This document shows positions 24,573 to 54,390 of a stretch of DNA of 64,000 nucleotides, piece after piece (the first letter of the stretch is position 1; each line of letters starts with the position of its first letter). The position numbers and the translations under genes are program-made. The notes under the pieces were generated by a model. It ran no database searches. It saw only the letters and a list, made by a program, of their open reading frames with translations, and had not been told where the DNA came from. This DNA is from Pseudomonas phage vB_PaeM_GXNNA8, in the sequence record PV400810.1. One strand, written 5' to 3'.

Positions 24573-26798
24573 TCACGGACCGGCGTTTGGGTCGGGTTTC
24601 GCATCCTTGATGTTCTCAACCTTGACACGTTTGACGGCCAGTTGGTTGATGAGACCTTTGTCGCTCAGCAGGTCTTCAGCATCTTCGATGACCAGAGAAC
24701 CAATGACCACGTTGAGCGGCCAGTGTTTGTAGCTCGGCAGGGTCATCACGACACCGAAGTCGCTGTTGTCACGCGTGATGTTACCCTGTACAACGACGTT
24801 CTCCTTCGATACCAGAACACCAATACCCGCCAGCGGGTTAATGGTTTCGTTGTTGGAATCGTTGGTCGGAACGATGTACATCTTACCGATCATGCTGTCG
24901 AAGTTGGTTTCAACCACTTTCAGGTTGTTGATCGGACCAATGGTCCGTGCATCACCCGAACGGAAGATGAAACGGCTCAAGTTCTGATGGACGACCACCG
25001 TCCAGGCGTTCTTGGTATTACCAGTGCTGTATTCTGCAATGGATGCCAAGCCGGACTTGGTGTTCAGGGCCGCAACGATATCGGCGATCTCGTTGGTAAT
25101 GGCCGATGCCACCGACACGAACACATCCGAAGAACTGTTAGCCGAGATCACATCAGACAGCTTGAAGCTACGGTTGATGGCGATCGGACTCACAAAGTGC
25201 TGACCCGCGAGCACTTCCGAACCTTGGTCGTTGGCAACCACCGGCTGACCAGTAATCGAGGTGACATACTCGATGTGCTTCTCAGCCGCTTGGAAAGCGT
25301 GAGCGGAGCACTGGTTGTTAATCACCACCGACATCTGGCTCAGTGCGAAGTCCAGGCTCGCCTGGTTGACGTCATCAGCCGAGATCGGGTATTTCACCGA
25401 GATCGGGGAACGACGTTTCACCGACAGGTGTTTCTTGGCATCGTACACTTCAATCCGATAACCGAAGTTACCGCGGTTGGTATTCGATACATTCTGGGTG
25501 GTAATAGCGCCGATCAGTTTACCTTCGGTGAAGGAGCGCATCAGAGCCTTAACCGTGCTGTCAGCGAAACCGATCTTGGTGACCACACCGGTGGTGATGT
25601 TGCGAACAGCGGTGATGGTCACAGTACCCGGTTGCAGGTTGAACTCGTTGGTCTGGCGTTGGTAGCTACCAGTCAGGCGGAAGGCCAGCAGCGGTTCGTA
25701 ACCTGCGGACTTGAAGCTGGCGAAAATGGTTTCACCCACCACTTTGCCGTCTTTGTCGCTCACCGAGAAGCCCGGCAGTTGTTTGACTTGCAGGTTCAGT
25801 TGACGCTCATCGCTGGACTGGGTGTTGCCGCCCGGTGCGAAGGTGTTGTTCGACATGGCGCCGGTTTTGATGAAGAACGAAATATCGGTGCCGTCCAACT
25901 TACCGCTCGCGGCGATGAGAGACACGGAGATGGAGTTGGATTCGAGTTCGTCGGTGGAATTCCACGGACGTTGACCTGGCGCTTGGGTCAGGGCGAGCAG
26001 GTTCGGAATCGATACCGGAACCGCCAGCATTTGGGTTTCGTGCTCACCACGACCGTAGGCGTCACCTTGCGGGTATTTCACAGGACGCGGGGCGATGACA
26101 CTGTCAGCAACGAAGAAGGCACGCTCTTCGCTCGCGGTATCTTCCGGGTAAACCGGGTAGACGGCCAGGGCTTCGTCTTTGAACATATCGCCGCTGCGGA
26201 GCAGGCCGAAGATCGGACGCAGTTCCGAAGCCGATTGCCACGGGGTGTTGCCGTACGCGTAGGTACCCAGACCCGCTGCACGAACGATCAGCTCGGCACC
26301 TTCGTCTTGATAACGCACACCGACGGTGGCGAACAGGGCTTCAGCGCCTTCGGTTTGAAGGTGGCTCTGGGCGTTCAGGGTCAGGTTGGCGGCACGGATC
26401 TCTTGCTCACGACCCTCGAAGTTCTGCATCGAGAAGCCTTCAGCACCTTCCACCTTGGCGAAGTTATCACCGGCTTCTTGGAAGATACGAACGCAGTCCA
26501 TGGGGATCAGGTCACGGCTCTTGCGTTCCAGGATACCTTGGACGATGTCGTAAGTAGCCGAGTTGAAGCCCGTGTGCAGGTCCAGGCCCTCGGTACCACT
26601 GACGTTCGGAAGCGAACGACCGATCAGACGGTTGACCAGAAAACCTTCCTGACCACCCGCACTCTGAAGAGTGCTACGGAAGTCTGCGAAGCTCTCGTTA
26701 CCGGTGATGTTGGAAAGACTACCGGCTACCAGGGACTTGCAGACATCGCTGAAAAGATTGTTGTCTCCATTAATGGAGGTTCGTAGTTGCTTTGCCAT
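24573..26798 (-). CDS. putative major capsid protein (jumbo-phage, phiKZ/SPN3US-type large MCP, ~741 aa) with N-terminal propeptide region
   Basis: The ~740-aa size matches the large MCPs of jumbo myoviruses. The gene shows strong codon bias. Several G/A-x-E sites (GNE, GQE, GAEGF, GAEAL) lie in the first ~150 aa, consistent with prohead-protease trimming. The gene is flanked by a hairpin terminator. Start refined to MAKQLRTS (track ORF 24573..26846). Confidence 0.5.
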   Translation of the reverse strand: MAKQLRTSINGDNNLFSDVCKSLVAGSLSNITGNESFADFRSTLQSAGGQEGFLVNRLIGRSLPNVSGTEGLDLHTGFNSATYDIVQGILERKSRDLIPMDCVRIFQEAGDNFAKVEGAEGFSMQNFEGREQEIRAANLTLNAQSHLQTEGAEALFATVGVRYQDEGAELIVRAAGLGTYAYGNTPWQSASELRPIFGLLRSGDMFKDEALAVYPVYPEDTASEERAFFVADSVIAPRPVKYPQGDAYGRGEHETQMLAVPVSIPNLLALTQAPGQRPWNSTDELESNSISVSLIAASGKLDGTDISFFIKTGAMSNNTFAPGGNTQSSDERQLNLQVKQLPGFSVSDKDGKVVGETIFASFKSAGYEPLLAFRLTGSYQRQTNEFNLQPGTVTITAVRNITTGVVTKIGFADSTVKALMRSFTEGKLIGAITTQNVSNTNRGNFGYRIEVYDAKKHLSVKRRSPISVKYPISADDVNQASLDFALSQMSVVINNQCSAHAFQAAEKHIEYVTSITGQPVVANDQGSEVLAGQHFVSPIAINRSFKLSDVISANSSSDVFVSVASAITNEIADIVAALNTKSGLASIAEYSTGNTKNAWTVVVHQNLSRFIFRSGDARTIGPINNLKVVETNFDSMIGKMYIVPTNDSNNETINPLAGIGVLVSKENVVVQGNITRDNSDFGVVMTLPSYKHWPLNVVIGSLVIEDAEDLLSDKGLINQLAVKRVKVENIKDAKPDPNAGP

Positions 26799-36270: not shown

Positions 36271-37026
36271 TTATTCCGGGTCTACGTCACCGGGCGATGG
36301 TTGGGGATCTTCTTCCCCTTCGGAACGGTACCGAATAAACAGATGAGGACCCTCCTCAAGCTTAATGATCACCAAGCCTGAGAAACAATCCGATACGTTA
36401 TCGATCAGTTCTCCCCCTTTCAACCGATCCACCGTAACCGACTGGATCTTAACGGAGTTCAGGTAATCCACCACCTGCTGACAGAAAGTGTCAGACAACC
36501 GAGACCGGTTCTCCGTAAAGAGGTTCCCATTCCCCTGGAAGATTTTAGAACTTAACGCCATCTGGAGACGAGGGGTATCCAAGTCGGTGGCTTTAAGAAT
36601 CCCTGAAGGCCCTAAGCGGGCTTTATTGAGCAGTTTAAGGATCAGGCGCCCTTTCCACAGGATACTGGTCGGAGCGATCTCCAGGGTGACCATCTGGAAA
36701 GGAGAAGGTGCATTCTTGGGCAGGTCTACTTTCCCTTCTGGAACCGTATAGTCCACCCCTTCCACGAGGAAGAGTTTAAACGTGTTACTGAGCCGTTTAA
36801 ACACCTGAGCCAACGGTTCTTGGTCAGCCACCGGGAGCTCAGGAATACTGACCCCCATGTAATCCCCAATATCCTTCTTTGGAATAGGGAGTATGGTTTC
36901 GTCGTTATTCAACTGAACCACCACATACCCGACGTCTTCATCTCCAGGTTGAGTACCCAGGATAACGCTGTCTTTGGGCAGCTGTGTTTGGATCTGTTCC
37001 AAGACACGTGGATGGAGTGTTTTCAT
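36271..37026 (-). CDS. hypothetical protein (251 aa)
   Basis: ORF. Hairpin at ~36224-36254 lies downstream. Confidence 0.5.
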   Translation of the reverse strand: MKTLHPRVLEQIQTQLPKDSVILGTQPGDEDVGYVVVQLNNDETILPIPKKDIGDYMGVSIPELPVADQEPLAQVFKRLSNTFKLFLVEGVDYTVPEGKVDLPKNAPSPFQMVTLEIAPTSILWKGRLILKLLNKARLGPSGILKATDLDTPRLQMALSSKIFQGNGNLFTENRSRLSDTFCQQVVDYLNSVKIQSVTVDRLKGGELIDNVSDCFSGLVIIKLEEGPHLFIRYRSEGEEDPQPSPGDVDPE

Positions 37027-38432
37027 GTGTTCGTACCCCCAGTGTTCCCACCCTCTTTAATAAAGATGTGGGGTGTAATACCTTTAATGGCTTTACGAAG
37101 ACCTTTAACCAACTTATCGTGCTCACCAATCTTCTTCTTGGCCTCCGCAACGGCTTCTTTAGCAGCTTTAACCGTTTCCTGTACTGCTGCCTTAGCCGCA
37201 CTAACCGCTTCTTTGTCTTCATCATTCCCACTGGTCTGCTGAGAGGCTTTCCTCAATTCAGCCAGGGTGGTATCAACCGCTTTCTTATCAGCCCGGAGTT
37301 TCTCACCGTTGACTTCTTCTTTCTTAAGAAGACCCAACAGTCCATCGATTACACCCCCTACGTCCGTGGGTGTCCGAAGCCGATTCACAACCTGAGACAT
37401 TGCCCCAGAGACATCCACCTTCTCCGCTAGGGTCTTAATCCCCTCACGTGCCTTGTCGTTGATGCTGACATTCTTGGTGGGCATGGATTGGACCGCTTTC
37501 TTATTGTCCTCCCCAGTCTTTGCTACGGCATCGTTGTCGGCTTTCTCTTTCTCAGACGACTCGTACCAAGCTTTCAGTTGTTCCCAGCCACTCAAAGCCG
37601 CTTGGTAGGCGTTCCGAGCAACCGCTTTAATGGAGTCAAAGACTTGACCCTCACTCCCTTCAATGGAACGGAGTTTAACCCCGTTCATTTCAGCAACAGT
37701 CATGAAATAATCACGGTCGGTGCTTTGAATACCATCCAGGTAATCTTCCAGACCCTGGAGAACATGCAATGGGTGGTCGAGCACACACCCGCATTCACAG
37801 GTATCACCTCCCGCACACTCCAACCCAGGAACCCCCCAATGATTGACCTCAATCGGATGGAGGTAGGTGTAGTCCATCGGCGCATACTCTTCCAAGCCCG
37901 CCAACAGCCCCTGACGAGAGGTTACGAAGATGTCCACCAAACTCAGAATCTTGTCAATGTATTCCAGTTTACGCGCGGTAGCGGAATACACTTCAGCTGG
38001 GGTGAGCTTCAGACTATCCTCATCCTGTTCCAGCAGGTAATTGACCAACCCTTTACCCTTGCTGATCAGTGCACCTACTCCTTCCGCCTCCGTAAATGCA
38101 CCACCCTTATTCCCCAACGAACAAATCAGCATGGAAATGTCCCGAGGGAATTGATAGATTCCGTTCTCAATACTACTCAGGGTTTCCTTCAGGTAACGGT
38201 CCAGGACAGCATTCACTTTCAACTCACTGGCGTCGTAATAGTCAAACTCACGACTGATAATATTCAGTGTGTTGACAATCTGACCCATGATGTGTTCTTC
38301 AGTTAATTGACTAATCCCATGTTTCTCCAGGTAGCTAATCAATTCAGGGGTCTTCTCCTCGGAGAGAACGTCCTTACCCACTTCCCCCAGGATCATCCCC
38401 AGCAAACCTAAACGATAGGCTGCGTTCATCAT
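37023..38432 (-). CDS. alpha-helical head/internal-protein-family paralog (TEAE|GVGALISKGKGL motif)
   Basis: Track ORF is 37023..38495. The ATG pair at 38432 follows AAGGGGA. Helical, with a G-x-E-type site near the N-terminus. Confidence 0.5.
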   Translation of the reverse strand: MMNAAYRLGLLGMILGEVGKDVLSEEKTPELISYLEKHGISQLTEEHIMGQIVNTLNIISREFDYYDASELKVNAVLDRYLKETLSSIENGIYQFPRDISMLICSLGNKGGAFTEAEGVGALISKGKGLVNYLLEQDEDSLKLTPAEVYSATARKLEYIDKILSLVDIFVTSRQGLLAGLEEYAPMDYTYLHPIEVNHWGVPGLECAGGDTCECGCVLDHPLHVLQGLEDYLDGIQSTDRDYFMTVAEMNGVKLRSIEGSEGQVFDSIKAVARNAYQAALSGWEQLKAWYESSEKEKADNDAVAKTGEDNKKAVQSMPTKNVSINDKAREGIKTLAEKVDVSGAMSQVVNRLRTPTDVGGVIDGLLGLLKKEEVNGEKLRADKKAVDTTLAELRKASQQTSGNDEDKEAVSAAKAAVQETVKAAKEAVAEAKKKIGEHDKLVKGLRKAIKGITPHIFIKEGGNTGGTNT

Positions 38433-38439
38433 CGTCCCC

Positions 38440-38925
38440 TTACTTAACCTTAACGGTGACATTACCCTTGTAAATCGTCGAGTAACGTGCGTCAATTATG
38501 AGAGTGTCGTTAACCAGGCCCAAGTCGACTTCGTGACGGTAGAGACCGGGTAACCCTACAAAACTCCGCCAGAGTTCAAAGTACGTGGTATGAGGATCAT
38601 CCTCCTTGAGGACGAGGGGGGTGCTGGGTTGAACAATCGGTTCCTGTTCCTCTGGGATCACCCCCAGCTTTTCCTGGAGAAGACTCACAACGATCTCAGG
38701 CGTTTCCTTATAAGTCACCTGGCTAATGTCCTGGGGAATCCCCTTTAGGAACTCTCCGAGATCCAAGCGTTCAATCAGGACACCCTGACGCAGTTCTCCA
38801 TGGGGGATGTATTTGAACACCGCATCGTTAACCCTCGTAGTAATCCCAAACCGAGGGTTAATGTCAGTGTAACCACCCAATGCGGCTTTCACCACAACAG
38901 ATTGATTCAATAAGCTAAGCTGCAT
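38440..38925 (-). CDS. hypothetical protein (161 aa)
   Basis: ORF within the head-protein cluster. Confidence 0.5.
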   Translation of the reverse strand: MQLSLLNQSVVVKAALGGYTDINPRFGITTRVNDAVFKYIPHGELRQGVLIERLDLGEFLKGIPQDISQVTYKETPEIVVSLLQEKLGVIPEEQEPIVQPSTPLVLKEDDPHTTYFELWRSFVGLPGLYRHEVDLGLVNDTLIIDARYSTIYKGNVTVKVK

Positions 38926-38930
38926 AGCCT

Positions 38931-39998
38931 TTAGCTCCTTCTCTTCACAGCGGCTTCCAACACCGCGTAAACAGCGTTAGCACTCCGGTACACTTCCGTC
39001 TCCATGACTTTAAGACTCGCCATGGCATTACGAATCACGGCTTTCATTTCCTTGATGACAACCTGAGCTTCAGGAGACGCCTCTTTAACGTTCAGACTTG
39101 CCATTAACGCCGTTACAAAGTCATTCTCCAACGAATGGACCTTAGTGTTCATGTCCTTGAGGGATTCTGTTAGACGATTGTGCTTGACCAGGAGTTCACG
39201 TACCTGGGAGACATTGGTCTTAAAGGTCGCGTTCTTCACTCGATCATTCGACAAGACACCCAGTTCCCGCGTCAGGTTAATCGTCACGTCCACGGTGTTC
39301 TTACCCACGACCAGGTCATCTTTAAACACCAGTGTGGCTTCCTGGTTCGCATTCACCCCTAACAGACCCTTAACCTCTTGGTAGAAGGCATTCCCCTTGG
39401 TACTGAATTCCGTGTATTTCGAATGGTCAATCAGACGACCCAATTCCTTACAGAAGTTCCCTACACTCGAACTGTACCGTTCAATCGTCTTAATCCCACG
39501 CTCAATATCCCCGATGACGGTACCTACCCACCCCACATTCGACGGTAACCTGCCCGTTTTAGGGAAGATATAAAAGGCGGCTTTGGGATACGGAATGTCA
39601 TCCTCCCGTACACCGTTGGCTTTAAGAGCGACCTCCAGTTCATCTCCTTTGTCTTTCAGGGCTTTCCCTTTGGTCCCAAAGAAACTCCAGATCCACTTAA
39701 AGAAATCCTTAACCACTTGAATGAGTTTACCGATACCGTGTTTAACGGAATCAATAAACCCCTCAGTACCGGTCGAAGCAGTCAACCGATTCTGATGTCG
39801 GTGGAGAACGTAGTTGTAGACACTTTCTAATCCACTGATCTTGTCGTTCTCTCTGGAGAGTGCAACCATAGTCGTTTCGTCGTTGACTAGATCATAACCC
39901 TCCCTATCCTCCTCATACTCTTCATACACCGTCGGTGAATTCACGTATCGGAGGGGTGCTACAGGATGCGTATTCATCGTTAACAACCTAATAGTCAA
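38931..39998 (-). CDS. head/internal-protein-family paralog (GTE|GFIDSVKHGIGKLIQVVKDFF)
   Basis: Shares the conserved N-terminal motif with 40105, 51062 and 56337. Confidence 0.55.
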   Translation of the reverse strand: MTIRLLTMNTHPVAPLRYVNSPTVYEEYEEDREGYDLVNDETTMVALSRENDKISGLESVYNYVLHRHQNRLTASTGTEGFIDSVKHGIGKLIQVVKDFFKWIWSFFGTKGKALKDKGDELEVALKANGVREDDIPYPKAAFYIFPKTGRLPSNVGWVGTVIGDIERGIKTIERYSSSVGNFCKELGRLIDHSKYTEFSTKGNAFYQEVKGLLGVNANQEATLVFKDDLVVGKNTVDVTINLTRELGVLSNDRVKNATFKTNVSQVRELLVKHNRLTESLKDMNTKVHSLENDFVTALMASLNVKEASPEAQVVIKEMKAVIRNAMASLKVMETEVYRSANAVYAVLEAAVKRRS

Positions 39999-40041
39999 GT
40001 TGAGTACATAGCATCGAAATTACAGTATTGCGACATAAAGG

Positions 40042-40073
40042 CTACAGGTAGGGGGATATCCCCCTACCTGTAG
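40042..40073 (-). terminator. perfect 32-nt palindrome CTACAGGTAGGGGGATATCCCCCTACCTGTAG downstream of the GC-rich acidic-propeptide gene
   Basis: 14-bp stem with an ATAT loop. Confidence 0.6.
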
Positions 40074-40104
40074 TACCTCTAGGAATAGATCCTAACACTC
40101 GACC

Positions 40105-41361
40105 TTACAGGTGAGCCGCAACCAGATCCAGCGATTGCTTGGCTTGGTAAGCCAGCAGACGGTTGACCGACTGGGTCAGGCTCGCACCGGTGCTGTACAG
40201 CGCGCGCACCAGTTTGATCGCCTTGTCAGCATCACCCTTGGCGTCTTTGTCACCACCTTTGGCGTTCAGGGTGCCGACGACACGGTCACGTTCAGCCTTG
40301 GAGAACTTCTGGCTGATCTTGCTGTCTTTCAGAACGAATACAGTAGCGCTCACAGTTTTCAGCAGGCTTTCCAGTTGTGCTTTGGTTGCCTTGACAGCCA
40401 CTTCACCTTTGGCGAACTCGGCAGCGTCCTTGTTCTTGCCGAAGGACAGCTTGACGGAACGCGCGGCAGCCAGGACTTCTTCATCGGTATCGACCTTCTC
40501 TTCGTAGGTCAGGTAGATACCGAAGCCGGCACGTGCAGCCAGGACTTGACGCTTGTCACCGGAACCTTTCTCAGTGGCATTGCCACCGGTTTCTTTCACA
40601 ACGGCTTTGACGTCAGCGACCAGGCTGTTGTACGCAGTCTTGAACTGGGAGGCGTTGACACCGTCGAGGTTCTTGCCGATGTCGATGAAGGCCGGCAGGG
40701 ATTCGCTCAGGACTTTGGTAAACGGACCTTTGTCCAGGATGTCCGCGCCGTTCTTGGCATAGTCGACACCGATGTTCCATTTGCCCAGCTTGACTTTCTC
40801 TTTCAGCTTGTCGGCTTTACCGAGTTTGTCGGCGAGCTGAGCACGACGACGGTCGATACCGGCAGCGGTGCTGAACAGACCCACGAAGAAGTTGATGACG
40901 GTGTTGAAGATCGCCTTGATGAACTCGGCGGCTTTCTTACCGGCATTCTTCACGGTGTCCATGAAGGCTTCAACGCCGGTCACCGAAGCGATCTTGGCGG
41001 TGGCAGCGTCGGAGATGGATTCCGCACCCAGGCGTTCGAAGGATTGGCCGCCCAGCTTGGCGTTCAGACGCAGGGCCTTGTTGTAGCTGTGAGCGAAACC
41101 AACGGAGCTGAACTGACCCGAGCTCAGCATGCTTTCCAGGCCTTCGACTTCTTCAGCCAGTTCTTCGACGACTTCTTCGTGCTCTTCCAGGTCATCACGC
41201 AGTTCTTCGACTTCAGCCGCGACCTGTTCTACCTCTGCCACAACCTCGGCGATGTCAGCACGCACTTCTTCGACAGCGGCTTCGGTCACACCATCTTCGA
41301 GGTTGTCCGCGCCGTTCTCCAGAAGCTCTTCCATGCCAGTGTAGCGATCGAGAATACTCAT
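40105..41361 (-). CDS. head/internal-protein-family paralog with ~110-aa poly-acidic coiled-coil propeptide (GVE|AFMDTVKNAGKKAAEFIKAIF); compositionally GC-rich, probably very highly expressed (scaffold/internal core-like)
   Basis: Track ORF is 40105..41469. The ATG at 41361 follows AAGGAAA. The N-terminus is E-rich (EVEELRDDLEEHEEVVEELAEEVEG). The gene is visibly more GC-rich than its neighbours and is followed by the 32-nt palindrome at 40042-40073. Confidence 0.55.
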   Translation of the reverse strand: MSILDRYTGMEELLENGADNLEDGVTEAAVEEVRADIAEVVAEVEQVAAEVEELRDDLEEHEEVVEELAEEVEGLESMLSSGQFSSVGFAHSYNKALRLNAKLGGQSFERLGAESISDAATAKIASVTGVEAFMDTVKNAGKKAAEFIKAIFNTVINFFVGLFSTAAGIDRRRAQLADKLGKADKLKEKVKLGKWNIGVDYAKNGADILDKGPFTKVLSESLPAFIDIGKNLDGVNASQFKTAYNSLVADVKAVVKETGGNATEKGSGDKRQVLAARAGFGIYLTYEEKVDTDEEVLAAARSVKLSFGKNKDAAEFAKGEVAVKATKAQLESLLKTVSATVFVLKDSKISQKFSKAERDRVVGTLNAKGGDKDAKGDADKAIKLVRALYSTGASLTQSVNRLLAYQAKQSLDLVAAHL

Positions 41362-41413
41362 GAGTTGTTTCCTTTGTTTCGTTAACGAAATGAAATGATT
41401 GTTTATAAACAAA

Positions 41414-42427
41414 TCAAGCGAATACCCCAAGTACACCATGAATGTACTTATCGGTATAACCGACCACACGAGGAGTGAATCCGCTATAAAATGCGAGCGC
41501 TCCCATGTTTCCAGCCATCAGCTTCTCAGCTTCGCCTATTACCGTCTTACTCACTTGATCCAATTGACTCAAGTTACCATCAACACCTTTGACCATTTCT
41601 GCCCAAGATTTGATGAATCCGAGATAACTCTCATACGATGCCTTAACCCGCAAGTGCAACGCATTGACCTTCCCGAGTTTATTCAGGATGTCAGTGACCT
41701 CGGTTTTAGACAGGTTCAGGGTCACCCCTTCCCCTTCATGCGGTTCACCCCCAATGGAATACACCGCAGGTTTATCGTCTTCTTCCTGTTTGAAGAGGAA
41801 GAAACGACCACCCGGTAGCACCTCAGACTTATACGCCTTATCCAACCGGTCAGCGAACTTCATAACGGGATATTCCAACCCGTTGAACGCATCAATGACC
41901 TTGTGAATGTCTTCGGACTTCTTAGCCGATTTCAACTGCTTCAAGGTCACCAATTCACGGTCCAAGAACCCCATCAGGTCTTTGGCGTGTTGTTCAACGA
42001 CTTCGAGGTCCTTAACCAGAAGATCCATGTCGTGGAGAATACGGTCAGGGTTACCCGTCGCAGTAATCAGTCCAATCTTCTTGCCAGTAACCTGAATATC
42101 TTTGTCAGCCACCTTACCAGCGTCTTTAAGGACATTTTTAATAAGTCCTTGATTGTCATTGAAACTCTTATTCAGTTGATTACCTGCGGTCGTCATACCA
42201 CGAATAAAGCCATCAATCGCTTTACCCCCGACCCATTTACTCACACTGAACAAACCCCGACCCACCGAAGACAAGCTGTCCATGGCGGCTTCTTTCAACG
42301 CCTCACTGCCCTCGACATCATCCATTCCCATGATACTGCCCAACTCAAGGAGTTCTGAGTGAGCCTGCATCAGGTCCTGGTGTTGTTCGAGGGCATCAAC
42401 GTATTGGCTTTTATAACCCGCGCTCAT
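41414..42427 (-). CDS. head/internal-protein-family paralog (alpha-helical)
   Basis: Track ORF is 41414..42505 (TTG start). I prefer the ATG at 42427 (MSAGYKS). Confidence 0.5.
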   Translation of the reverse strand: MSAGYKSQYVDALEQHQDLMQAHSELLELGSIMGMDDVEGSEALKEAAMDSLSSVGRGLFSVSKWVGGKAIDGFIRGMTTAGNQLNKSFNDNQGLIKNVLKDAGKVADKDIQVTGKKIGLITATGNPDRILHDMDLLVKDLEVVEQHAKDLMGFLDRELVTLKQLKSAKKSEDIHKVIDAFNGLEYPVMKFADRLDKAYKSEVLPGGRFFLFKQEEDDKPAVYSIGGEPHEGEGVTLNLSKTEVTDILNKLGKVNALHLRVKASYESYLGFIKSWAEMVKGVDGNLSQLDQVSKTVIGEAEKLMAGNMGALAFYSGFTPRVVGYTDKYIHGVLGVFA

Positions 42428-42440
42428 ACCCTCACCCCGC

Positions 42441-43751
42441 TTAGTCCAGGCTTTCTTCGTAAAGCCCAATGGAATCGTTACAGATAGACACCATCCCGTT
42501 GACAATCAGAGTGAGGTAGTTCGAGACCTCAGCGCGAATACCCAAGAGCTCGGTTTGGTTCTTACGAACGACTTTAGCGAACGTCTTCGACAACACCGTC
42601 TTCGCCTCATCACTGATATCGGCTTCCAGGAAACCTTTAATGATGTCGTTGTAATCCGAATCCGTTACGCGGTAGGTCTCCGCCATCTCAAAGACCTTAC
42701 CCCAGTCTTTCAAGAGCTGGCGCAGGAGTTTGATGACGGTCTTAATGTCTTCACTCGACAACGCCTTCACTTCAGCCCCAACATCCCGAAGGGTATACTC
42801 TTCGTTGTTATCGAAACCGGTGTGATCAATTTCAGTGTAACGGATCACAAAGTCTTGAATGTCGTCAGGGTTCTTCAGGATCACCGGTTTAACGGTACTG
42901 CGAACATCGTAGAAGTATGCACCGCCCATCAGCTCGACCGACCGTTTAGCCACCACGTTAGGTCCCGAACGGCGTTTATCCGGATAAGTACATTCCTTAA
43001 ACGGCGTTGATGGCAGACTCACCGGCATCATGCAGAGGCGTTCATCCACTTCCACTTGGGTCAGACCTGAGAACCCACCGAAGTAACTGAACGATGCCGC
43101 CAACGCATTCTTGCTGTTGAGGTAGTAGTTATTACTCAGACCCGACAGGGTTTGATTGAGCTTGGTCAGGTTACCCACCCAGTTCTCATCCACTTTACCG
43201 TTGATCTTAAACCGGTTAAAGAGACGGTGACCCAGGATAAAGGTACCTTGACTCCCAAACTTCTCAACAGAGGACAACCGGGTTTCCAGCAGGTCAATCT
43301 GCTTACTCAGACTCTCCTGGGATTCCATAAAGAGAACGTACGAATCCCGGAAGAAGGTCCCAATCAAACTGACTACTTCCCGGGAGCTCTTAAAGAAGTC
43401 GCTCAGGAAGCTCTCACAGCCCGCTAGACGCGTTGCAAGGTACGCCTTAGGGAGAAGGGTAAGCCCCAAGGCTTCCGCCCCTTCTACGGCCTCTGGGAGG
43501 GCTTCTGCGGCAATCAGGTCTTTATCGAGCTGTTCAGCCAGCTCCGGCGTCACCTCGTGGGCTTCCAGGGTGTTCAACGTGCGTTGGACTTCAATCACGC
43601 GATCGAACAGATCATCGAGGCTGTTCTGGTACTCCGACAGTTCCGCCGTGGAACGGGCGGCTTCCACGATCTCCTGGGATTTGACTGCACTGACCGCAGC
43701 CATTTCAGCAGCCAACGTCTTTTCATCATCATTCATTGCACTCTTCTCCAC
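42441..43751 (-). CDS. head/internal-protein-family paralog (alpha-helical; GAE|ALGL site)
   Basis: 436-aa ORF. Confidence 0.5.
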   Translation of the reverse strand: MEKSAMNDDEKTLAAEMAAVSAVKSQEIVEAARSTAELSEYQNSLDDLFDRVIEVQRTLNTLEAHEVTPELAEQLDKDLIAAEALPEAVEGAEALGLTLLPKAYLATRLAGCESFLSDFFKSSREVVSLIGTFFRDSYVLFMESQESLSKQIDLLETRLSSVEKFGSQGTFILGHRLFNRFKINGKVDENWVGNLTKLNQTLSGLSNNYYLNSKNALAASFSYFGGFSGLTQVEVDERLCMMPVSLPSTPFKECTYPDKRRSGPNVVAKRSVELMGGAYFYDVRSTVKPVILKNPDDIQDFVIRYTEIDHTGFDNNEEYTLRDVGAEVKALSSEDIKTVIKLLRQLLKDWGKVFEMAETYRVTDSDYNDIIKGFLEADISDEAKTVLSKTFAKVVRKNQTELLGIRAEVSNYLTLIVNGMVSICNDSIGLYEESLD

Positions 43752-43758
43752 CTAAGGG

Positions 43759-44271
43759 TCAGCTGTAGTAATTCTCACCGCCCAGTAGCAACAAGGTCCG
43801 CCCTACATTGGAAGGACTGATACCGGACATTAGGCGATAGAGATCGTAGTCGTGGACGATGTAGCCGTCTTCCAGGAGCGGAAGCGGACTGCCCGTGGTT
43901 TGGGTTTGGCGGTAGGTCGCTTTACGTACTTTCGACGCACTCAGGAGTTTACGCTCCTCAATACGAAGCGACGTAATCAGCGAGTGGTGACCCATACGCC
44001 CATTGAGGTAATGAACAATGTCTTTGATCAATCCTGCAATAGGTCCACGGCCACTGTCGTAGTTGGCTTCCATGAACTGACGGAAACTGGGACCCACCAA
44101 CCGAGTGACATCCCGAATGGTTTCAATGGCCACATGACCTTTGATGACCAATTCGAAATCACTGTACGCATCCTTCCGGAGGAGATTGAGGTTAGTAAAG
44201 GCCTCCGTCATCTCCGCATCCGTCAGCTTTGCGTTCACAAACCCATTGGGGGAGCGACGAAAACTATTCAT
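43759..44271 (-). CDS. hypothetical protein (~170 aa)
   Basis: Track ORF is 43759..44364. The ATG at 44271 gives an 8-nt overlap with the upstream stop. Confidence 0.45.
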   Translation of the reverse strand: MNSFRRSPNGFVNAKLTDAEMTEAFTNLNLLRKDAYSDFELVIKGHVAIETIRDVTRLVGPSFRQFMEANYDSGRGPIAGLIKDIVHYLNGRMGHHSLITSLRIEERKLLSASKVRKATYRQTQTTGSPLPLLEDGYIVHDYDLYRLMSGISPSNVGRTLLLLGGENYYS

Positions 44272-45148
44272 AGCGTCTCTCGATGGTTTCAATGGTGTTA
44301 ACGTTCTTGATGATCTCGTCCTGAAGCACCTCGATCTGACGATCGATTTCAGCATCGTTGACACCGTTCTTCATGTTCACGGCTTTCGAGATCTTCATGG
44401 CGAAGAGTTCGTTGTCCCGACGCATCTTCTCGATACGTGCAATGTTCAGGTTCATGTTCGCCAAACTGATCCAATACTTCGGATTCAGCAAATGGACCCC
44501 AAAGCCTCGCTTCAGGTAATCCGGAGCGGCTTTAGGGTCAGTGGCTTCCAGAACAGCCAACGAGGTTTCATTGACTTCCACGTCCGGAAGATCATCCAGA
44601 CCCTCCAGGAGACGACGAGAGCCTTTCAGGAGGTCCAAGGTAACCGACTTGTAGAACTCCAGGGTCCCATTCACCAGTTTCAAGTCGGCCTTATCCAAGG
44701 CCTTCTCAGGGGTGGTGACCGACTGGTTGTTCAAGTCCAGCAGAACATTGTAGACCATATTGGTGTATTTCAACCAATACTCCATGTGTTCCATCAGGTT
44801 CAGGATATTGACTTGACGCAAGGTCAGGAGCTTACCGTCCCAGACTTCGTCTTTATACCCATTCACCCGTTTCGTTAACTCGGGGACCAAACTGATAATC
44901 GTTTCACACGATCCCCGGGTAGCACCCACCAAGCCTACACCCCGGTACCCGTTATTGTCCAGTTCACGAACAATACTCTTGGTAATCACCCACTGATTGA
45001 TTTCATGGCTCAAATCCACCTTATTCGCCACCATTCGTTCGAGGTTCGAAATCAGGTCGTTACTGGCCACCGTGAGGGTAGTGAGTTTGGTTATCAGTTC
45101 GTTCTTCTTGAACGTCTTAACACCCTTCACGTATTCAAAGATATTCAT
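44264..45148 (-). CDS. hypothetical protein (294 aa)
   Basis: ORF. Confidence 0.55.
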   Translation of the reverse strand: MNIFEYVKGVKTFKKNELITKLTTLTVASNDLISNLERMVANKVDLSHEINQWVITKSIVRELDNNGYRGVGLVGATRGSCETIISLVPELTKRVNGYKDEVWDGKLLTLRQVNILNLMEHMEYWLKYTNMVYNVLLDLNNQSVTTPEKALDKADLKLVNGTLEFYKSVTLDLLKGSRRLLEGLDDLPDVEVNETSLAVLEATDPKAAPDYLKRGFGVHLLNPKYWISLANMNLNIARIEKMRRDNELFAMKISKAVNMKNGVNDAEIDRQIEVLQDEIIKNVNTIETIERRYE

Positions 45149-46242
45149 TAGAGACCCCCGTTGAGCAATTTAACGAGATCTTGTAGCGTGTTCGCAGAGC
45201 CTTCTTTCTTGGACTTAACGGACAAGTCTCGACGTGTGTAAACTTCCGGCATGGTTTGACCATCGGTGTAGAACGTGAAAATACCCCGGTCATCATTCAC
45301 GATAACGAGGGTATTCGCCGAAATACTCTCGAAGATTTTTTCACGGCTAACCGGGTCCGCAAACTTACGACCGATTTCCAGTTCGAGCTGAGTCGCCGTA
45401 TCCTGAGTGATGATGACCGTGTTCGCCATGGAGTTCATGCTAATGATACCCGTGCGAATCGCTTCCAGCTTATTCTGGGTATCCCGCTTCATGGCTTCCT
45501 TGTAATACCCAGAGGTATCACCCATCTTCGCTTTAAAACGGGCTTTAACGATGTCACTACCATCAAACCACTGAGGCGTGGTGATCTCGCCACTCTTCTT
45601 CATGATCCACCGCATCTTCAACCCTTCATCGGGTTTAGCGGCAGAGAAGAGGGTCACCAGGTTCTCATGGGTCACCGGGATCGGGATCTGACGGATAGTA
45701 AGGGGAACTTCGATCTTGTTACCATTCGCTCCGTAGAGCGTGGCGTTCACCACTTTACCCACCGCCAGGGGGGTGAACTCCATCAGTTCACTGTAGGTCT
45801 TGCCATTGACTTGAACTTGGTTCGGGGTAGCCGGGTCTTTGGGTTTGATGTTGTTATCCATCGCTTCCAGTCCCGAGAAGAGACTCATCATCCCACCGCG
45901 GTTGGGACTGATGCTCCCGATGAGGTTCTCTACCTTAACCCCCACTTCCACGGAATTCTGCAACGCGAGGTGAGTCAGTGTTGCGGTAATATCCCGTAGG
46001 GTCACCACTGTCATGAGATCCGGGGTGTATTCCTGGTGGATAAGGGACCCCTCAATGGCGACCATCGGATTCAAAATAGTGCGGGCTGCACTACGTTGTA
46101 CCGAGCTCGTGGAAATCACATTGTATGAATGTTTGGCCCGGTCCGTTACTTGGGCCGCCGAGGCAATATCCTTGCTCTCAGGATACAGCTGCTTGGCGAT
46201 GTCCAAGAAGAAGGAACCTAGAGACAATACTTGTCCTATCAT
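45148..46242 (-). CDS. hypothetical virion-type protein (364 aa)
   Basis: ORF. Divergent from the 46276 plus-strand island. Confidence 0.55.
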   Translation of the reverse strand: MIGQVLSLGSFFLDIAKQLYPESKDIASAAQVTDRAKHSYNVISTSSVQRSAARTILNPMVAIEGSLIHQEYTPDLMTVVTLRDITATLTHLALQNSVEVGVKVENLIGSISPNRGGMMSLFSGLEAMDNNIKPKDPATPNQVQVNGKTYSELMEFTPLAVGKVVNATLYGANGNKIEVPLTIRQIPIPVTHENLVTLFSAAKPDEGLKMRWIMKKSGEITTPQWFDGSDIVKARFKAKMGDTSGYYKEAMKRDTQNKLEAIRTGIISMNSMANTVIITQDTATQLELEIGRKFADPVSREKIFESISANTLVIVNDDRGIFTFYTDGQTMPEVYTRRDLSVKSKKEGSANTLQDLVKLLNGGL

Positions 46243-50333: not shown

Positions 50334-51065
50334 TTACTCGGTGTCTTTAGAGGGAAGATTACCTTCAATCAACTCGTCCAAGAAACACGAGAACAACTTA
50401 GCCAACCGCACCCGAACACCGAGTTGTTGGGTGTAGTAATCGATACCGGCCAGAGATTGCTCTTTGATCGAAGAGGGTGAGAGGTAATACTGGTAGAAGT
50501 TCTCCTTGACCTGCTTCAATTCGAAGTCATAGTCATCCAGAAGGAGGTAATCCCCGTCATCCACACAGCGGGCTTGATCACGCAGTTGAGTCCAACAGGT
50601 AATCTCGCCATCTGCGACCTTCTCTTTCCCTTCGAAAAACCCGTTAGCGAAGTATTCAAAGAACCGGGCGGGTTCCTTACGGAGTTCGTTGTACTTCTCC
50701 AGGGCGACGGGGTCATTCAGGTCCGCTCGGTTAATAGACGAGAACACCTGTTCCAGTCGACCCCCGATCCTGGGGAACGCCACCGCAAAGAAGGCCTTGG
50801 TAGCTCCCAAAGCCAGGATATAACCAGCCTGCTCACCCAACGACGTGCAGAGGATAATACCTCCGTTGTCCTTAGGGAACTGAGCCGTAACACGAACTTT
50901 CATTTTTTCCGCCTGTTCACCAGACCAGTACCGGTCAATGATGGCGTAAGCGGCTTCAGGTCCTATCCCTTCTTTCAGCAGAGCGAGGTCGTCCTCACTG
51001 GTCTTACGGATCAATTCCAGTTCGTGCAGGGCTTTAATACCCAGTTCACACACTTCACGATTCAT
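50334..51065 (-). CDS. hypothetical protein (~243 aa)
   Basis: Track ORF is 50334..51080. The ATG at 51065 gives an ATGA overlap with the upstream stop. Confidence 0.5.
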   Translation of the reverse strand: MNREVCELGIKALHELELIRKTSEDDLALLKEGIGPEAAYAIIDRYWSGEQAEKMKVRVTAQFPKDNGGIILCTSLGEQAGYILALGATKAFFAVAFPRIGGRLEQVFSSINRADLNDPVALEKYNELRKEPARFFEYFANGFFEGKEKVADGEITCWTQLRDQARCVDDGDYLLLDDYDFELKQVKENFYQYYLSPSSIKEQSLAGIDYYTQQLGVRVRLAKLFSCFLDELIEGNLPSKDTE

Positions 51066-52579
51066 ACGGGTCTCCCCCATCCAGTTTGTCGTGCCAAGGC
51101 ATTGTACTTGGAACGAAGCTCACCAATGTCGTTTTCAATCACGATTTTCATCGTCCCACTCATCTTCTCCAGGAAGGTCTTTGCATCCGCTTCCGGAATA
51201 AAATCCAACGCCAATGTCGGATAACCCTCCGCATTCGCCACAGGAGAGTGCCCCGCCTCGCGAGCTTGGATATTGATTTCACGAAGCTTTTCAATGTCAT
51301 CCAGCAGACCATGGTAATACCACATGTGAGAACGGTGATACCAACCCACCAACGCTGCTACTTGGTTTTCAACCGCCAACAGCTGACTGGTTACAGATTG
51401 GCAATATTGGCTGAAGTTACGCATGGCAACCGCCACGCCCTGGTAATCACTGAGGAGTCCAGGGACTTGGTAGTATCCCGCAATGCTCTTGACCTTCTCG
51501 GCATCGGTTACATCCACCAGATTACCCAACTCACTCAGACGAATCCGAGACATGTCGATCGCCTTATCCGAGATCGTCATATACGCCGCGTTGAGCTGCT
51601 GAACGAGGTCCATGATCACCGGAGTGTTCACCCGGGTCAACTTCACCCGTTGAGCCTGAATGTTCTCTTTAAGGGTCTCCCGGACGGTATGGAACCCTTC
51701 ATTCAACGCCTCGTTTTCGAACTTCACCTTGTAGAGGGTTTCCAGGAGCTGACCGATTTGTTCTACTAAACCATCCGGTTTAACGAAGGTCAGGGTTTCC
51801 AACACCGCTTTCTGGACTCGGTTAACCTCAGGGGAGTTCGCACCGTCTACGTACTCTCGGAGGTGAGCTCGACCCCGGGTAGCGTTGTATTCGTTACGGA
51901 TGGTCCTTTTAAGGTTTTCAGACGCACGTATTGCTTTGTCGGAAGCCTCCGTTAGTTTACCGATAATTTGTTCGAAGAGTGGGAAGACTTTACGAAGGGC
52001 CTCGATGCTCTCTTCATCGGTTTCGAACTTTGTGCGGAGGATCGTCAGTTGACCAATGCGGTCAGTGGCATTAGGGAACTCCCCAATGAACTTCTCCAGG
52101 TTGTAATTCGCCCCTGGGAAGCCCAGACCGTTCAAGGTCTGACGGAACTCCTCCCGGAGGTTCTCAAAGGAGTCATTAATCGCCTGGTTAATACGCGCGC
52201 TCTTACGGAAGCCCAGGAGACCTTTAATGTGTTCCATAACCCATTTAAAGGCCATCTTGATGTACTTGATGATCCCTTCAATGAACTTTTTGAACCCTTC
52301 CGTAATGGTAGAGATAAACCCTTCCGCTCCCATTACAGCATTACGCTCCGTTGGGAAAGGATCCATTTCGTACGCATTCTTCAGTTTGAGTTGGATAGCA
52401 ATGTCCCGAGAGAAGCGATTGAGCGCGAGGCTCTCACTCCCTTGGACCATGGCGTCCACCACGGGTTGACCGGTTTCTTCGTAGTACTCGTCCAGATCAA
52501 TGAGTTGTTTATCATCACCTGGGAGCACGCCGTCAACCGGATCACTCAATTGGAAATACGAACTCACCGGATTACTCAT
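51062..52579 (-). CDS. head/internal-protein-family paralog (GAE|GFISTITEGFKKFIEGIIKYIKMAFKWV)
   Basis: Shares the N-terminal motif with 38931, 40105 and 56337. Alpha-helical, 505 aa. Confidence 0.55.
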   Translation of the reverse strand: MSNPVSSYFQLSDPVDGVLPGDDKQLIDLDEYYEETGQPVVDAMVQGSESLALNRFSRDIAIQLKLKNAYEMDPFPTERNAVMGAEGFISTITEGFKKFIEGIIKYIKMAFKWVMEHIKGLLGFRKSARINQAINDSFENLREEFRQTLNGLGFPGANYNLEKFIGEFPNATDRIGQLTILRTKFETDEESIEALRKVFPLFEQIIGKLTEASDKAIRASENLKRTIRNEYNATRGRAHLREYVDGANSPEVNRVQKAVLETLTFVKPDGLVEQIGQLLETLYKVKFENEALNEGFHTVRETLKENIQAQRVKLTRVNTPVIMDLVQQLNAAYMTISDKAIDMSRIRLSELGNLVDVTDAEKVKSIAGYYQVPGLLSDYQGVAVAMRNFSQYCQSVTSQLLAVENQVAALVGWYHRSHMWYYHGLLDDIEKLREINIQAREAGHSPVANAEGYPTLALDFIPEADAKTFLEKMSGTMKIVIENDIGELRSKYNALARQTGWGRPV

Positions 52580-53028: not shown

Positions 53029-54390
53029 TTAGAGCGTCTTCAGTTGACTGGACAAGACTGCCAGTTCATGGTTATTAAGGGATTGAGTAAAGTGTTCGAT
53101 TTCTTGCTTACGGAAATCGCTGCCTGAGAAAATCCAACCAATAAAGCGATAGAGGACGGTGTTGTCGTACCAGGGTTTAAGTTTCTTAACCGCTTCCAGG
53201 GCTTTGGTGATGTCATCAATCAACCGCACCCGTTCCTCACCGGGAACGGTTTTACTGGCTTTCAGTTTAGCAATCAATTGGCGCAGGGCATCTTCCATAC
53301 GGCGGTGGTCGGAATTGTAGGCACCGGAATACCCGGCTTGGAAATACGCAAAGGCTGAACTGAGGGCAAAGACCCCCCACAACATACCCCCCAGCGCCGA
53401 GGTTCCCCCGGTAACAATGATGGTGACAGCGGCTGTAGGCCAAAACAAGAAGAGGGTTGCAACGGCACCGAACAGGAAGGTCTCTGTCGCAATGGTAAAG
53501 ACACCACGGTCCACCAAAGCACTGATCCCAGCGATCACTTCCTTACTGAAGCCCATACGAATGGCGTACATATCCGCAATCACTTCACTGGTCATCTCGG
53601 GAACCCCAACAGACAGTGACCGACGACTGTTCCGTTGAGAGAGCAGTTTGGTGTAGTACAGGAGGTAGTTCTCTTCATCTTCCTGGGTGGCAAAGCTTTT
53701 CAATTCCTCCAATTTGGCTTCTGGGACATCCAGAATAGCAGCGGTGTCTTTCAGGATAATCACCCGTTCTTCTGCTTTGGTGGCTTTACGGTACTGATCC
53801 AAGCCTGCTCGGGCTACCAGGTTGTCTTCCAGGTGAGTCAGCAGGAGTGCGCACCCCCCAAAGGCATGTCCCAGTTCGTGAGCGATACCGCCTGCTAGCG
53901 CACCTCCCATGGAGACTTTCCATTTGGTGATCTTATCCAACGGGAAGAACTGATGCAGGTTGACGTTGATCCCAATAGTCAAGGGAACGTCTTGGAACGA
54001 ACCGGTCACTTTACCGGAGCGGTAATCAACACCTCCTTTAAAGATCTTGTTCTTGTTCTCCACAAACCACCGATACAGGGTAGTCTTAGAGGCTGGAATC
54101 AACACATCAGTACCCGTGTTGTTCAGAACATGGTTCGGGGAGAAATACCCCGCGTCGATGTACAGGTTACCACTGTCGTTCAACTCCAGCTTTATGTTGC
54201 TAAAGCCAGTGTGTTTCTTAATGAGTCCCAGTACGTCCACTTGGCAGTCAGGGGACAACACCACCCGCTTATCGGTAATCGTAATGTATTGATCCAAGCA
54301 AGCGGTTAATTCGTCTTTAAAGGTAGCATTCTGGAACTCAATGAACTCCGTACCCGCTACCTTTCGGGTAATAAAACTCATGTCCAACAT
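53029..54390 (-). CDS. M48/HtpX-like zinc metalloprotease with C-terminal transmembrane helices
   Basis: HEXXH within GGIAHELGHAFGG, and about 95 aa downstream an E-V-I-A-D-M-Y-A (ExxADxxA) third-ligand motif. Two or three hydrophobic helices follow (FLFGAVATLFLFWPTAAVTIIV; LGGMLWGVFALSSAFAYF). Confidence 0.5.
   Translation of the reverse strand: MLDMSFITRKVAGTEFIEFQNATFKDELTACLDQYITITDKRVVLSPDCQVDVLGLIKKHTGFSNIKLELNDSGNLYIDAGYFSPNHVLNNTGTDVLIPASKTTLYRWFVENKNKIFKGGVDYRSGKVTGSFQDVPLTIGINVNLHQFFPLDKITKWKVSMGGALAGGIAHELGHAFGGCALLLTHLEDNLVARAGLDQYRKATKAEERVIILKDTAAILDVPEAKLEELKSFATQEDEENYLLYYTKLLSQRNSRRSLSVGVPEMTSEVIADMYAIRMGFSKEVIAGISALVDRGVFTIATETFLFGAVATLFLFWPTAAVTIIVTGGTSALGGMLWGVFALSSAFAYFQAGYSGAYNSDHRRMEDALRQLIAKLKASKTVPGEERVRLIDDITKALEAVKKLKPWYDNTVLYRFIGWIFSGSDFRKQEIEHFTQSLNNHELAVLSSQLKTL

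Follow-up and report, generated by a model that had tools for sequence, protein, structure and literature searches.

What do the proteins encoded on the minus strand at positions 37,023 to 43,751 of a 64,000-nucleotide stretch of Pseudomonas phage vB_PaeM_GXNNA8 (record PV400810.1; the whole stretch is called the window below) have in common, and what does the shared part do? The initial annotation, made from the letters alone, had proposed a paralogous family of head or internal (ejection) proteins, with further members elsewhere in the window, that share an N-terminal block directly after a Gly-x-Glu (G-x-E) tripeptide. We find that seven window proteins (gp61, gp62, gp63, gp64, gp66, gp54 and gp50), together with gp165 from outside the window, begin with one cassette, and that the region is very probably the inner-body or ejection-protein set of an EL-type jumbo phage, with a cassette that would be cut by the head protease. 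Positions 37000-44000 share 97-98.5% identity with Pseudomonas phage EL and phages closely related to it, and the window as a whole (~64 kb, 97% identity) is the reverse complement of about 51-115 kb of EL, so genes are named here by their EL correspondence. The minus strand holds every cassette gene of the window; the genes are listed below, followed by those for the major capsid protein (MCP), gp58 and gp52.

37023..38432, minus strand: gp66 homologue, 469 aa (EL gene correspondence)
38931..39977, minus strand: gp64 homologue, 348 aa from ATG; the open reading frame (ORF) extends to a TTG at 39998
40105..41361, minus strand: gp63 homologue, 418 aa
41414..42427, minus strand: gp62 homologue, 337 aa
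42441..43751, minus strand: gp61 homologue, 431 aa from the ATG at 43736
51062..52579, minus strand: gp54 homologue, 505 aa
56337..57422, minus strand: gp50 homologue, 361 aa
24573..26798, minus strand: gp78 homologue, MCP
45148..46242, minus strand: gp58 homologue, at the position of SPN3US gp50
53029..54390, minus strand: gp52 homologue, equivalent of SPN3US gp45, with a conserved HExxH

The N-terminal block is shared by descent

The four ORFs quoted in the initial annotation (gp64, gp63, gp54 and gp50) are present on the minus strand with the peptide strings given for them. An all-against-all BLASTP comparison of the 119 window ORFs of at least 100 aa yielded, among these genes, only the pairs gp64-gp50 (E 0.003) and gp64-gp63 (E 0.009), both matching at the motif. 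Pairwise values of only 0.003-0.009 would be in keeping with a similarity that reflects nothing but chance, or the composition of helical Lys/Glu/Ala-rich proteins. Against this, when hidden Markov models (HMMs) of a 37-residue block were built with one member left out, the left-out protein was the top ORF outside the training set (E 1e-4 to 1e-7), while the runner-up among all window ORFs had an E above 0.4; with the G-x-E deleted, the left-out protein still ranked first (E 0.05 to 2e-4). Because the four members had been picked by eye, this test is partly circular, and an independent HMM was therefore built, trained on metagenomic homologues of gp50, gp54 and gp64 only, with gp63 excluded. 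It matched gp63 in exact register at E 2.4e-9 and, when run against the whole EL genome, it recovered a fifth protein, gp165, from outside the window (E 1e-14, VAGNE/GFLSSIGEGIKKAWEYIKNLFKSIF, where the slash marks the predicted cut). Profile-profile comparisons, with E down to 4e-15, and invariant columns in the same register in three independent family alignments likewise speak against chance, which we regard as virtually discounted. Similarity of a merely compositional kind was ruled out by the HMM, profile-profile and family-alignment tests, and the cassette is homologous across these proteins.

The leave-one-out and independent HMMs agree on an alignable block right after G-x-E in gp64, gp63, gp54 and gp50. 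At ~30-35 residues it exceeds what had first been described; it follows the pattern GF.....G.KK......K.F..W.FF and ends with an aromatic cluster (KDFFKWIWSFF, KAIFNTVINFF, KMAFKWVMEHI, KMFKSLWDFFF). The matches that had been called weaker fared unequally. For gp61, AGCE/SF lies in register with FF at +20/21 and the protein is a full PF12699 member (see below), its block HMM score being marginal (E 0.5); gp66 is also marginal (E 0.17), with the site and block kept in a 45%-identical homologue (L012). In gp62, the G-x-E is kept and the block is degenerate, giving no match with the independent block HMM. PHROG profiles cross-match at the motif region among the gp64, gp63, gp50, gp66 and gp54 families, and a cross-match to phrog_35992 is common to gp66, gp64 and gp50. 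A search of a 5.8-billion-protein index with the block alignment returned 24 word-sharing candidates, none of which scored, a result that is bounded by the word index and is no proof of absence.

Conservation is strongest after the second site

Family alignments were assembled for gp50 (29 homologues), gp54 (23) and gp64 (38), whose members are 25-57% identical to the window proteins. Two G-x-E sites, 20-37 residues apart, are invariant in every family. The invariant positions are G45, E47, G71, N72, E73, F75, F100-102, R104 and D105 in the gp50 family and G49, E51, G70, E72, F92 and F93 in the gp64 family; in the gp54 family, the invariant sites are G47/E49 and G84/E86. The aromatic positions of the block are invariant in all three alignments, and the block is better conserved than the propeptide, which in turn is better conserved than the remainder of the protein. 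In the gp50 and gp64 families, the 30-residue segment with the highest conservation begins at the second site; among the gp54 homologues it falls within the block. Beyond these families, the G-x-E is invariant on five diverged metagenomic contigs in gp61 (both sites), gp62, gp58 (at about residue 126) and gp52 (residue 15), with 6 orthologues each.

Comparison of the family profiles with hhalign joined the gp64 and gp50 families over 102 columns that comprise the propeptide, both sites and the block (probability 98.4%, E 4e-15), and the gp54 family to the gp50 family (E 1.4e-8) and to the gp64 family (E 4.7e-8). The alignment of the gp64 family with gp63 extends over 77 columns, and that of the gp50 family with gp63 over only 36, i.e. 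the site and block.

Membership of PF12699 is divided among the proteins

PF12699 (phiKZ_IP; gathering score 27 bits) is matched over its full length by gp63 (E 6.7e-47, 161 bits) and gp61 (E 4e-48, 165 bits). The gp62 score of 24.9 bits falls below the cutoff, and that of its L007 orthologue, 44 bits, covers profile positions 142-364 only. The window copies of gp64, gp54, gp50 and gp66 gave no PF12699 match; a gp54 orthologue (P0054) reaches 35.6 bits, confined to profile positions 46-132, i.e. the cassette, and the gp165 match is confined to positions 92-150. A tblastn search with gp63 against distant jumbo phages (Aeromonas, Photobacterium, Serratia, OBP) matched only residues ~77-172, which hold the sites and the block and are therefore the conserved core of the family. 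It thus appears that PF12699 consists of two separable parts, a better-conserved cleavage cassette with a retained helix and a C-terminal domain.

For gp64, which also matches phrog_5750 (E 2e-6), the AlphaFold2 (AF2) model has a mean predicted local distance difference test score (pLDDT) of 82, places the second site in a low-confidence linker (residues 61-70) and has the block open a helix at 71-121. A Foldseek search with this model found BFVD models of virion or internal head proteins of jumbo phages, 201phi2-1, Noxifer, Psa21 and RisingSun among them, with E to 8e-9 and template modelling (TM) scores of 0.5-0.6, the fold sought being an elongated helical bundle with a small sheet. On this predicted structure, gp64 would be a diverged internal head protein in which the cassette is joined to a fold resembling that of PF12699. 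The gp50 model (pLDDT 86.6) has a similar dip in confidence around the site (block means 67, 59), and its block opens a helix of ~51 residues. Its Foldseek search gave no significant PF12699-fold match, 201phi2-1 proteins appearing at E 0.07-0.12, and otherwise matched only uncharacterised EL-clade proteins. Since gp50 is without a significant fold match, the statement that can be supported for it is a shared N-terminal cassette. Sequence searches of the PDB with gp63 and the gp54 family profile found no relatives.

The proposed kinship with the phiKZ inner-body proteins therefore stands for gp61 and gp63 by full PF12699 matches and for gp64 by its predicted fold, and does not extend to the fold of gp50. 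The word paralogous needs the same restriction, as it holds for the N-terminal cassette, whereas gp50 and gp54 show no similarity to PF12699 beyond it. Full-length paralogy is limited to gp61, gp62, gp63 and gp64, and the other proteins have the N-terminal cassette in common.

The gene order agrees with the head-protein clusters SPN3US gp44-gp54 and phiKZ gp82-gp96. The genes for gp61-gp64 and gp66 occupy the cluster position of PF12699-type genes, coming after the gp58-gp60 equivalents like SPN3US gp50-gp54 and phiKZ gp89-gp96, and those for gp50 and gp54 lie 7-13 kb off from the gp61-gp66 cluster, inside the same head-gene block. In RefSeq, gp63 is labelled 'internal head protein' and gp61 and gp54 'virion structural protein'. 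RefSeq EL gp64 (312 aa) begins downstream of the conserved N-terminus (region 39870-39998, minus strand), while the ATG at 39977 (348 aa) is backed by 38 homologues and brings back an acidic propeptide and the first G-x-E site; the annotated start of EL gp64 probably needs correcting.

Predicted cleavage sites and the protease

The sites and parts of each protein are as follows.

39666..39827, minus strand: gp64 cassette core
39825-39827, minus strand: gp64, codon of the upstream site SGLE51/SV
39762-39764, minus strand: gp64, codon of the maturation site TGTE72/GF, followed by the block (residues 73-104, 39666-39761)
40873..41022, minus strand: gp63, sites and block region
41020-41022, minus strand: gp63, site LGAE114/SI; a further upstream site is EGLE76/SM
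40969-40971, minus strand: gp63, site TGVE131/AF, followed by the block (residues 132-163, 40873-40968)
42302-42304, minus strand: gp62, single conserved site EGSE42/AL, with a degenerate block at 42206-42301; what is kept of PF12699 is mainly the C-terminal domain
43473-43475 and 43413-43415, minus strand: gp61, sites EGAE88/AL and AGCE108/SF, with a diverged block at 43317-43412
37650-37652, minus strand: gp66, codon of the site EGSE261/GQVFDSIK, with the block at 37554-37649, between a 261-aa acidic N-terminal part and a 208-aa Lys/Ala/Glu-rich helical tail
52433-52435 and 52322-52324, minus strand: gp54, sites QGSE49/SL and MGAE86/GF, with the block at 52226-52321; the cassette precedes an unrelated C-terminal region, and the gene lies where SPN3US encodes its essential head protein gp47
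57282-57284 and 57204-57206, minus strand: gp50, sites AGTE47/SL and TGNE73/GF, with the block at 57108-57203; the cassette precedes an all-helical C-terminal domain, not demonstrably PF12699
45865-45867, minus strand: gp58, codon of the site SGLE126/AM, a predicted substrate without block
54346-54348, minus strand: gp52, codon of the site AGTE15/FI, a predicted substrate without block
26439-26441, minus strand: MCP, codon of the site EGAE120/GF; four G-x-E/[GSA][FL] motifs lie in the first 153 residues

In SPN3US, sites of this kind have been mapped by mass spectrometry with semi-tryptic peptides (PMC10052503). SPN3US gp53 is cut at ARE-12, AQE-95 and AQE-125 to give the mature (E)GWKETLKDLFER, gp54 at AQE-124 and ARE-137 to give (E)SLWDDIK, gp47 at AVE-75 and ALE-111, gp45 at ASE-20, gp50 at ATE-127 and the MCP at ATE-130 (PMC10052503). 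Pairwise alignment places EL gp63 TGVE/AFMDTVK on SPN3US gp53 AAQE/GWKETLK and gp54 VARE/SLWDDIK, and EL gp52 AGTE/FIEF on SPN3US gp45 VASE/SIGF; in gp63 and gp52, the S/A/G-x-E is thus found at positions equivalent to mapped SPN3US sites. When the EL MCP and gp58 were aligned globally, pair by pair, to the corresponding SPN3US proteins, the quality was too low for residue-level site matching, and the equivalence of the gp58 site rests on its position (about residue 126 vs 127) and on the invariance of the G-x-E.

The motif G.E[GSA][FLMIWY] occurs 19 times in 59 coding sequences, compared with 4.7 +/- 2.2 in shuffled sequences (maximum 12 in 500), a ~4-fold enrichment, and 18 of the 19 occurrences fall in capsid, virion or head-cluster proteins, the remaining one being in gp57. 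The carriers are gp50, gp54, gp58, gp61-64, the MCP (four), gp103 (two) and gp57 (one). Every predicted site of the EL clade has Gly at P3 and G/S/A then F/L after the cut. A search for the prohead protease elsewhere in the genome had been suggested, and such a gene exists outside the window: EL gp192 is annotated 'head maturation protease', and a homologue of the SPN3US protease gp245 lies in EL-like genomes at ~204-206 kb (32% identity, E 2e-14). Cleavage at these residues in this phage is a strong inference from the sequence.

The initial annotation had also noticed a GAE/GF in the MCP, at about residue 118; EGAE/GF is present there, its Glu being residue 120, with no amphipathic block behind. 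Because a G-x-E site occurs in the MCP, gp58 and gp52 with no block behind it, cleavage does not require the block, and the P1'/P2' residues (a small one, then F/L) look like the only part that resembles a protease preference.

Properties of the propeptide and the block

The propeptides are acidic, with a net charge of -7 to -25 and a length of 42-261 residues. Over the 32 residues that follow the cut, the net charge is +2 or +3 for each of the four strong members and mostly +2 to +3 overall. The block has a hydrophobic moment of 0.5-0.68, the highest of any segment for gp63 and gp54 and among the top 5% of segments for the other proteins, whereas the segments after the MCP, gp58 and gp52 sites reach 0.26-0.34 and are not amphipathic. 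Six of the seven window proteins have 5-8 aromatics in the first 30 residues after the cut, and gp62 has 2. The block is predicted to be a cationic, aromatic-rich amphipathic helix that forms the start of a helix of ~50 residues.

A model for the cassette and its alternatives

The idea that these are protease-processed head or internal proteins related to the phiKZ inner body is supported by the PF12699 matches, the predicted gp64 fold, the synteny, the alignment with SPN3US sites and the protease. We propose that the cassette is made up of an acidic propeptide, a flexible linker with one to three G-x-E sites and a conserved amphipathic helix of ~30-35 residues. The precursors would be loaded into the prohead, where, during maturation, a T4 gp21-like protease (EL gp192) would cut after the Glu of the G-x-E in the linker, and often also at a second, upstream site in the propeptide, as in SPN3US. 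The acidic fragments would exit the head, leaving the helix as the new N-terminus of the mature protein. Proteins that otherwise differ may be docked by the propeptide and the retained helix to one shared partner in the prohead core, and after cleavage the helix may keep the internal protein mass together. We put this docking and packing role of the retained helix forward tentatively, as plausible rather than probable. A protein-protein role is favoured because the helix sits on otherwise unrelated C-terminal parts and because its conservation is stricter than generic lipid binding needs, as with the invariant FFFKRD of gp50; a membrane role at the early infection vesicle, once the proteins have been ejected, is also conceivable.

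The block could instead be merely the first helix of the folded mature domain, conserved through packing in the bundle, with the site marking the end of the propeptide. Strict family-specific invariance such as FFFKRD in gp50 would also suit fixed intramolecular contacts, and the AF2 models bear on this too, as set out below. We nevertheless hold this to be unlikely, since the block is common to proteins without other detectable similarity (gp50 and gp63 align over 36 columns), the gp50 fold search gave no significant PF12699-type match, gp54 orthologues match PF12699 only at positions 46-132, and the block exceeds the remainder of the domain in conservation in every family. In another alternative, the block would be a membrane-active helix, masked by the acidic propeptide and unmasked by cleavage, that after ejection binds the early phage infection vesicle, which derives from the inner membrane. 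In its favour, the helix is cationic, aromatic-rich and amphipathic (moment 0.5-0.68, top 5%) and lies behind an acidic propeptide; the corresponding stretch of mature SPN3US gp47 has a hydrophobicity that would suffice for a transmembrane segment (Kyte-Doolittle value 2.6; PMC5694885); and phiKZ PF12699 proteins are injected and co-localise with a lipid vesicle, with phiKZ gp93 pulling down membrane proteins (bioRxiv 10.1101/2024.03.24.586471). However, the invariance within families exceeds the needs of generic membrane binding, the phiKZ blocks are Lys-rich and have no aromatics, and the early infection vesicle of EL is itself putative, so that we consider a membrane-active helix of this kind quite improbable. 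A prime-side exosite for the head protease, i.e. a processing signature in the sense of the initial annotation, would account for the block lying directly after the scissile bond and for the recurrence of P1' G/S/A and P2' F/L at all predicted sites. This explanation is highly unlikely, as no amphipathic block follows the conserved G-x-E/[GSA][FL] sites of the MCP, gp58, gp52 and gp103, nor the upstream G-x-E sites of the cassette proteins themselves.

Some points weigh against the docking and packing model and the system around it. Both the function of the block and the exact cut positions are inferred. The block is continuous with a helix of ~50 residues that runs into the bundle at a pLDDT of 82-93 (AF2), as expected if it were simply the first helix of the domain. 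The phiKZ equivalents are recognisable but diverged (gp93 ISLE156/DLKEKLKEAGKKALEIIKKIV, gp86 ISQE116/AVMATIINTLKTWFEKL), and in the phiKZ paralogues the block has diverged far more, P1' being D/E and P2' not aromatic. The gp54 family has no detectable similarity to SPN3US gp47 by hhalign (probability 0.5%). Finally, gp50, gp62, gp64 and gp66 are 'hypothetical' in RefSeq, without a virion label.

A bolder version of the model, which we regard as speculative and rather doubtful, is that the cassette serves as a portable module ('load, cut and unmask') which has become joined to unrelated C-terminal domains (gp50, gp54, gp66, gp165) and brings diverse proteins into the prohead. Its helix, exposed by the cut, would anchor these proteins to one another in the head and later, after ejection, to the membrane of the early infection vesicle. 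If true, this would be the first mechanistic handle on the function of PF12699-type proteins.

Relation to known systems

For phiKZ, 201phi2-1, SPN3US and Goslar, it is established that a paralogue family of this kind exists, is proteolysed at S/A/G-x-E and is ejected (PMC5694885; PMC10052503; bioRxiv 10.64898/2026.04.21.720040). In RisingSun, the gp63 homologue ranks second among the proteins recovered by mass spectrometry of the lysate (PMC6034870). What is described here is the EL version of a known system and no new kind of system. Known PF12699 members include phiKZ gp92-97, gp162 and gp163, SPN3US gp53 and gp54 ('paralog family A') and Goslar gp53-58. EL resembles them in the full-model matches of gp61 and gp63, in the predicted fold of gp64, in the placement of the genes in the same syntenic cluster beside an HExxH protein, tail genes and the DNA polymerase, in the long N-terminal propeptides with several S/A/G-x-E sites and in the predicted maturation cut directly before an amphipathic helix, for which (E)GWKETLK of SPN3US gp53 and (E)SLWDDIK of SPN3US gp54 are the mapped examples (PMC10052503). 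It differs in that gp54, gp50, gp66 and gp165 have only the cassette (profile positions ~46-135) followed by non-PF12699 C-terminal regions, while gp62 is the reverse, with the C-terminal domain and a degenerate block, and in that the EL clade has Gly at P3 throughout, with G/S/A then F/L after the cut.

The closest counterpart of gp54 is SPN3US gp47, an essential low-copy head protein that is presumed to be an ejection protein. EL gp54 lies at the same position, between the gp46 and gp48 equivalents, both proteins have two sites ~36 residues apart (AVE-75/ALE-111 in SPN3US gp47, GSE-49/GAE-86 in EL gp54; PMC10052503), and both would have a hydrophobic or amphipathic helix as mature N-terminus, although the SPN3US segment is predicted to be transmembrane and that of EL gp54 is amphipathic. 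With phiKZ gp86, the gp54 family has a weak hhalign match confined to the cassette (E 0.002, probability 15%). The orthology of gp54 to SPN3US gp47 and phiKZ gp86 rests on gene position only.

The shared block had also been thought of as a capsid-targeting signature. The capsid targeting sequence (CTS) of the T4 proteins IPI-III and Alt is likewise an N-terminal signal of ejected internal proteins that is removed by a gp21-type protease after Glu (PMC7411985, PMC5694885). However, the T4 signal has 10-20 residues and is wholly removed, whereas the EL propeptides are acidic and multi-site, with 42-261 residues, and the best-conserved EL element stays on the mature protein. The EL cassette is therefore no T4-type CTS in the sense of a short, fully removed propeptide.

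Newly assigned to the family or the cassette are gp50, gp62, gp64, gp66, the virion protein gp54 and EL gp165, so that the 'hypothetical' gp50, gp62, gp64, gp66 and gp165 can be read as probable processed internal head proteins. It is also new that no other element is as well conserved as the retained helix, which is moreover found without the C-terminal domain of PF12699; we found no earlier statement of this in the literature surveyed, which left the main phiKZ proteolysis papers aside. The cleavage cassette and helix are thereby found also on proteins outside the PF12699 family, and the preference of the EL-clade protease can be stated as G-x-E, then G/S/A, then F/L. The role of PF12699-type proteins has been called a key unsolved mystery in a 2026 preprint on the Goslar structure (bioRxiv 10.64898/2026.04.21.720040), and for work on how these abundant chimallivirus proteins are packaged, injected and localised to the vesicle, a short, conserved and mutable helix at the mature N-terminus provides a concrete target.

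Further observations on individual genes

Among isolated phages, gp66 has no homologue outside the EL-like ones; one metagenomic homologue, L012, was reached via its gp64 neighbour. The N-terminal 261 residues of gp66 (37653-38432, minus strand) contain a Cys cluster, CAGGDTCECGC, and G-x-E near residues 181, 205 and 229, and the Cys cluster and all three extra G-x-E are kept in the L012 homologue. This part may be a real domain and not a simple propeptide.

The HExxH of gp52 (GGIAHELGHAFGG, residue 171) is also found in five metagenomic orthologues, in phiKZ gp84 (HEIGH) and in the SPN3US head protein gp45 (HEVGH), and a hydrophobic segment lies near residues 306-330; gp52 gave no Pfam match. 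From these sequence features, gp52 could be a packaged zinc metallopeptidase.

EL gp165 is encoded outside the window, at NC_007623 166529-167584 (minus strand; locus L015 1529-2584). It adjoins gp166, which is annotated as a DarB-like antirestriction protein. DarB-type proteins are packaged and injected by phage P1.

On two related metagenomic phage contigs, at L007 4056-6197 and L011 3982-6205, there are two tandem genes of gp50 size (347-357 aa) in place of the one in EL, the likeness being one of size. If both are gp50-like, the copy number of cassette proteins differs between relatives.

The gp103 homologue (4277-7279, plus strand), a virion structural protein of 990 aa, has VAGNE/QFMTQ and VTGAE/GL near ORF residues 190-310, which, judged by motif, are possible internal or late head-protease sites. 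Two further ORFs of the window, at the positions of EL gp92 and gp89 (13376-14182 and 15213-15998, both minus strand), are paralogous to each other (34% identity over 262 residues, E 1.5e-50) and unrelated to the cassette family.

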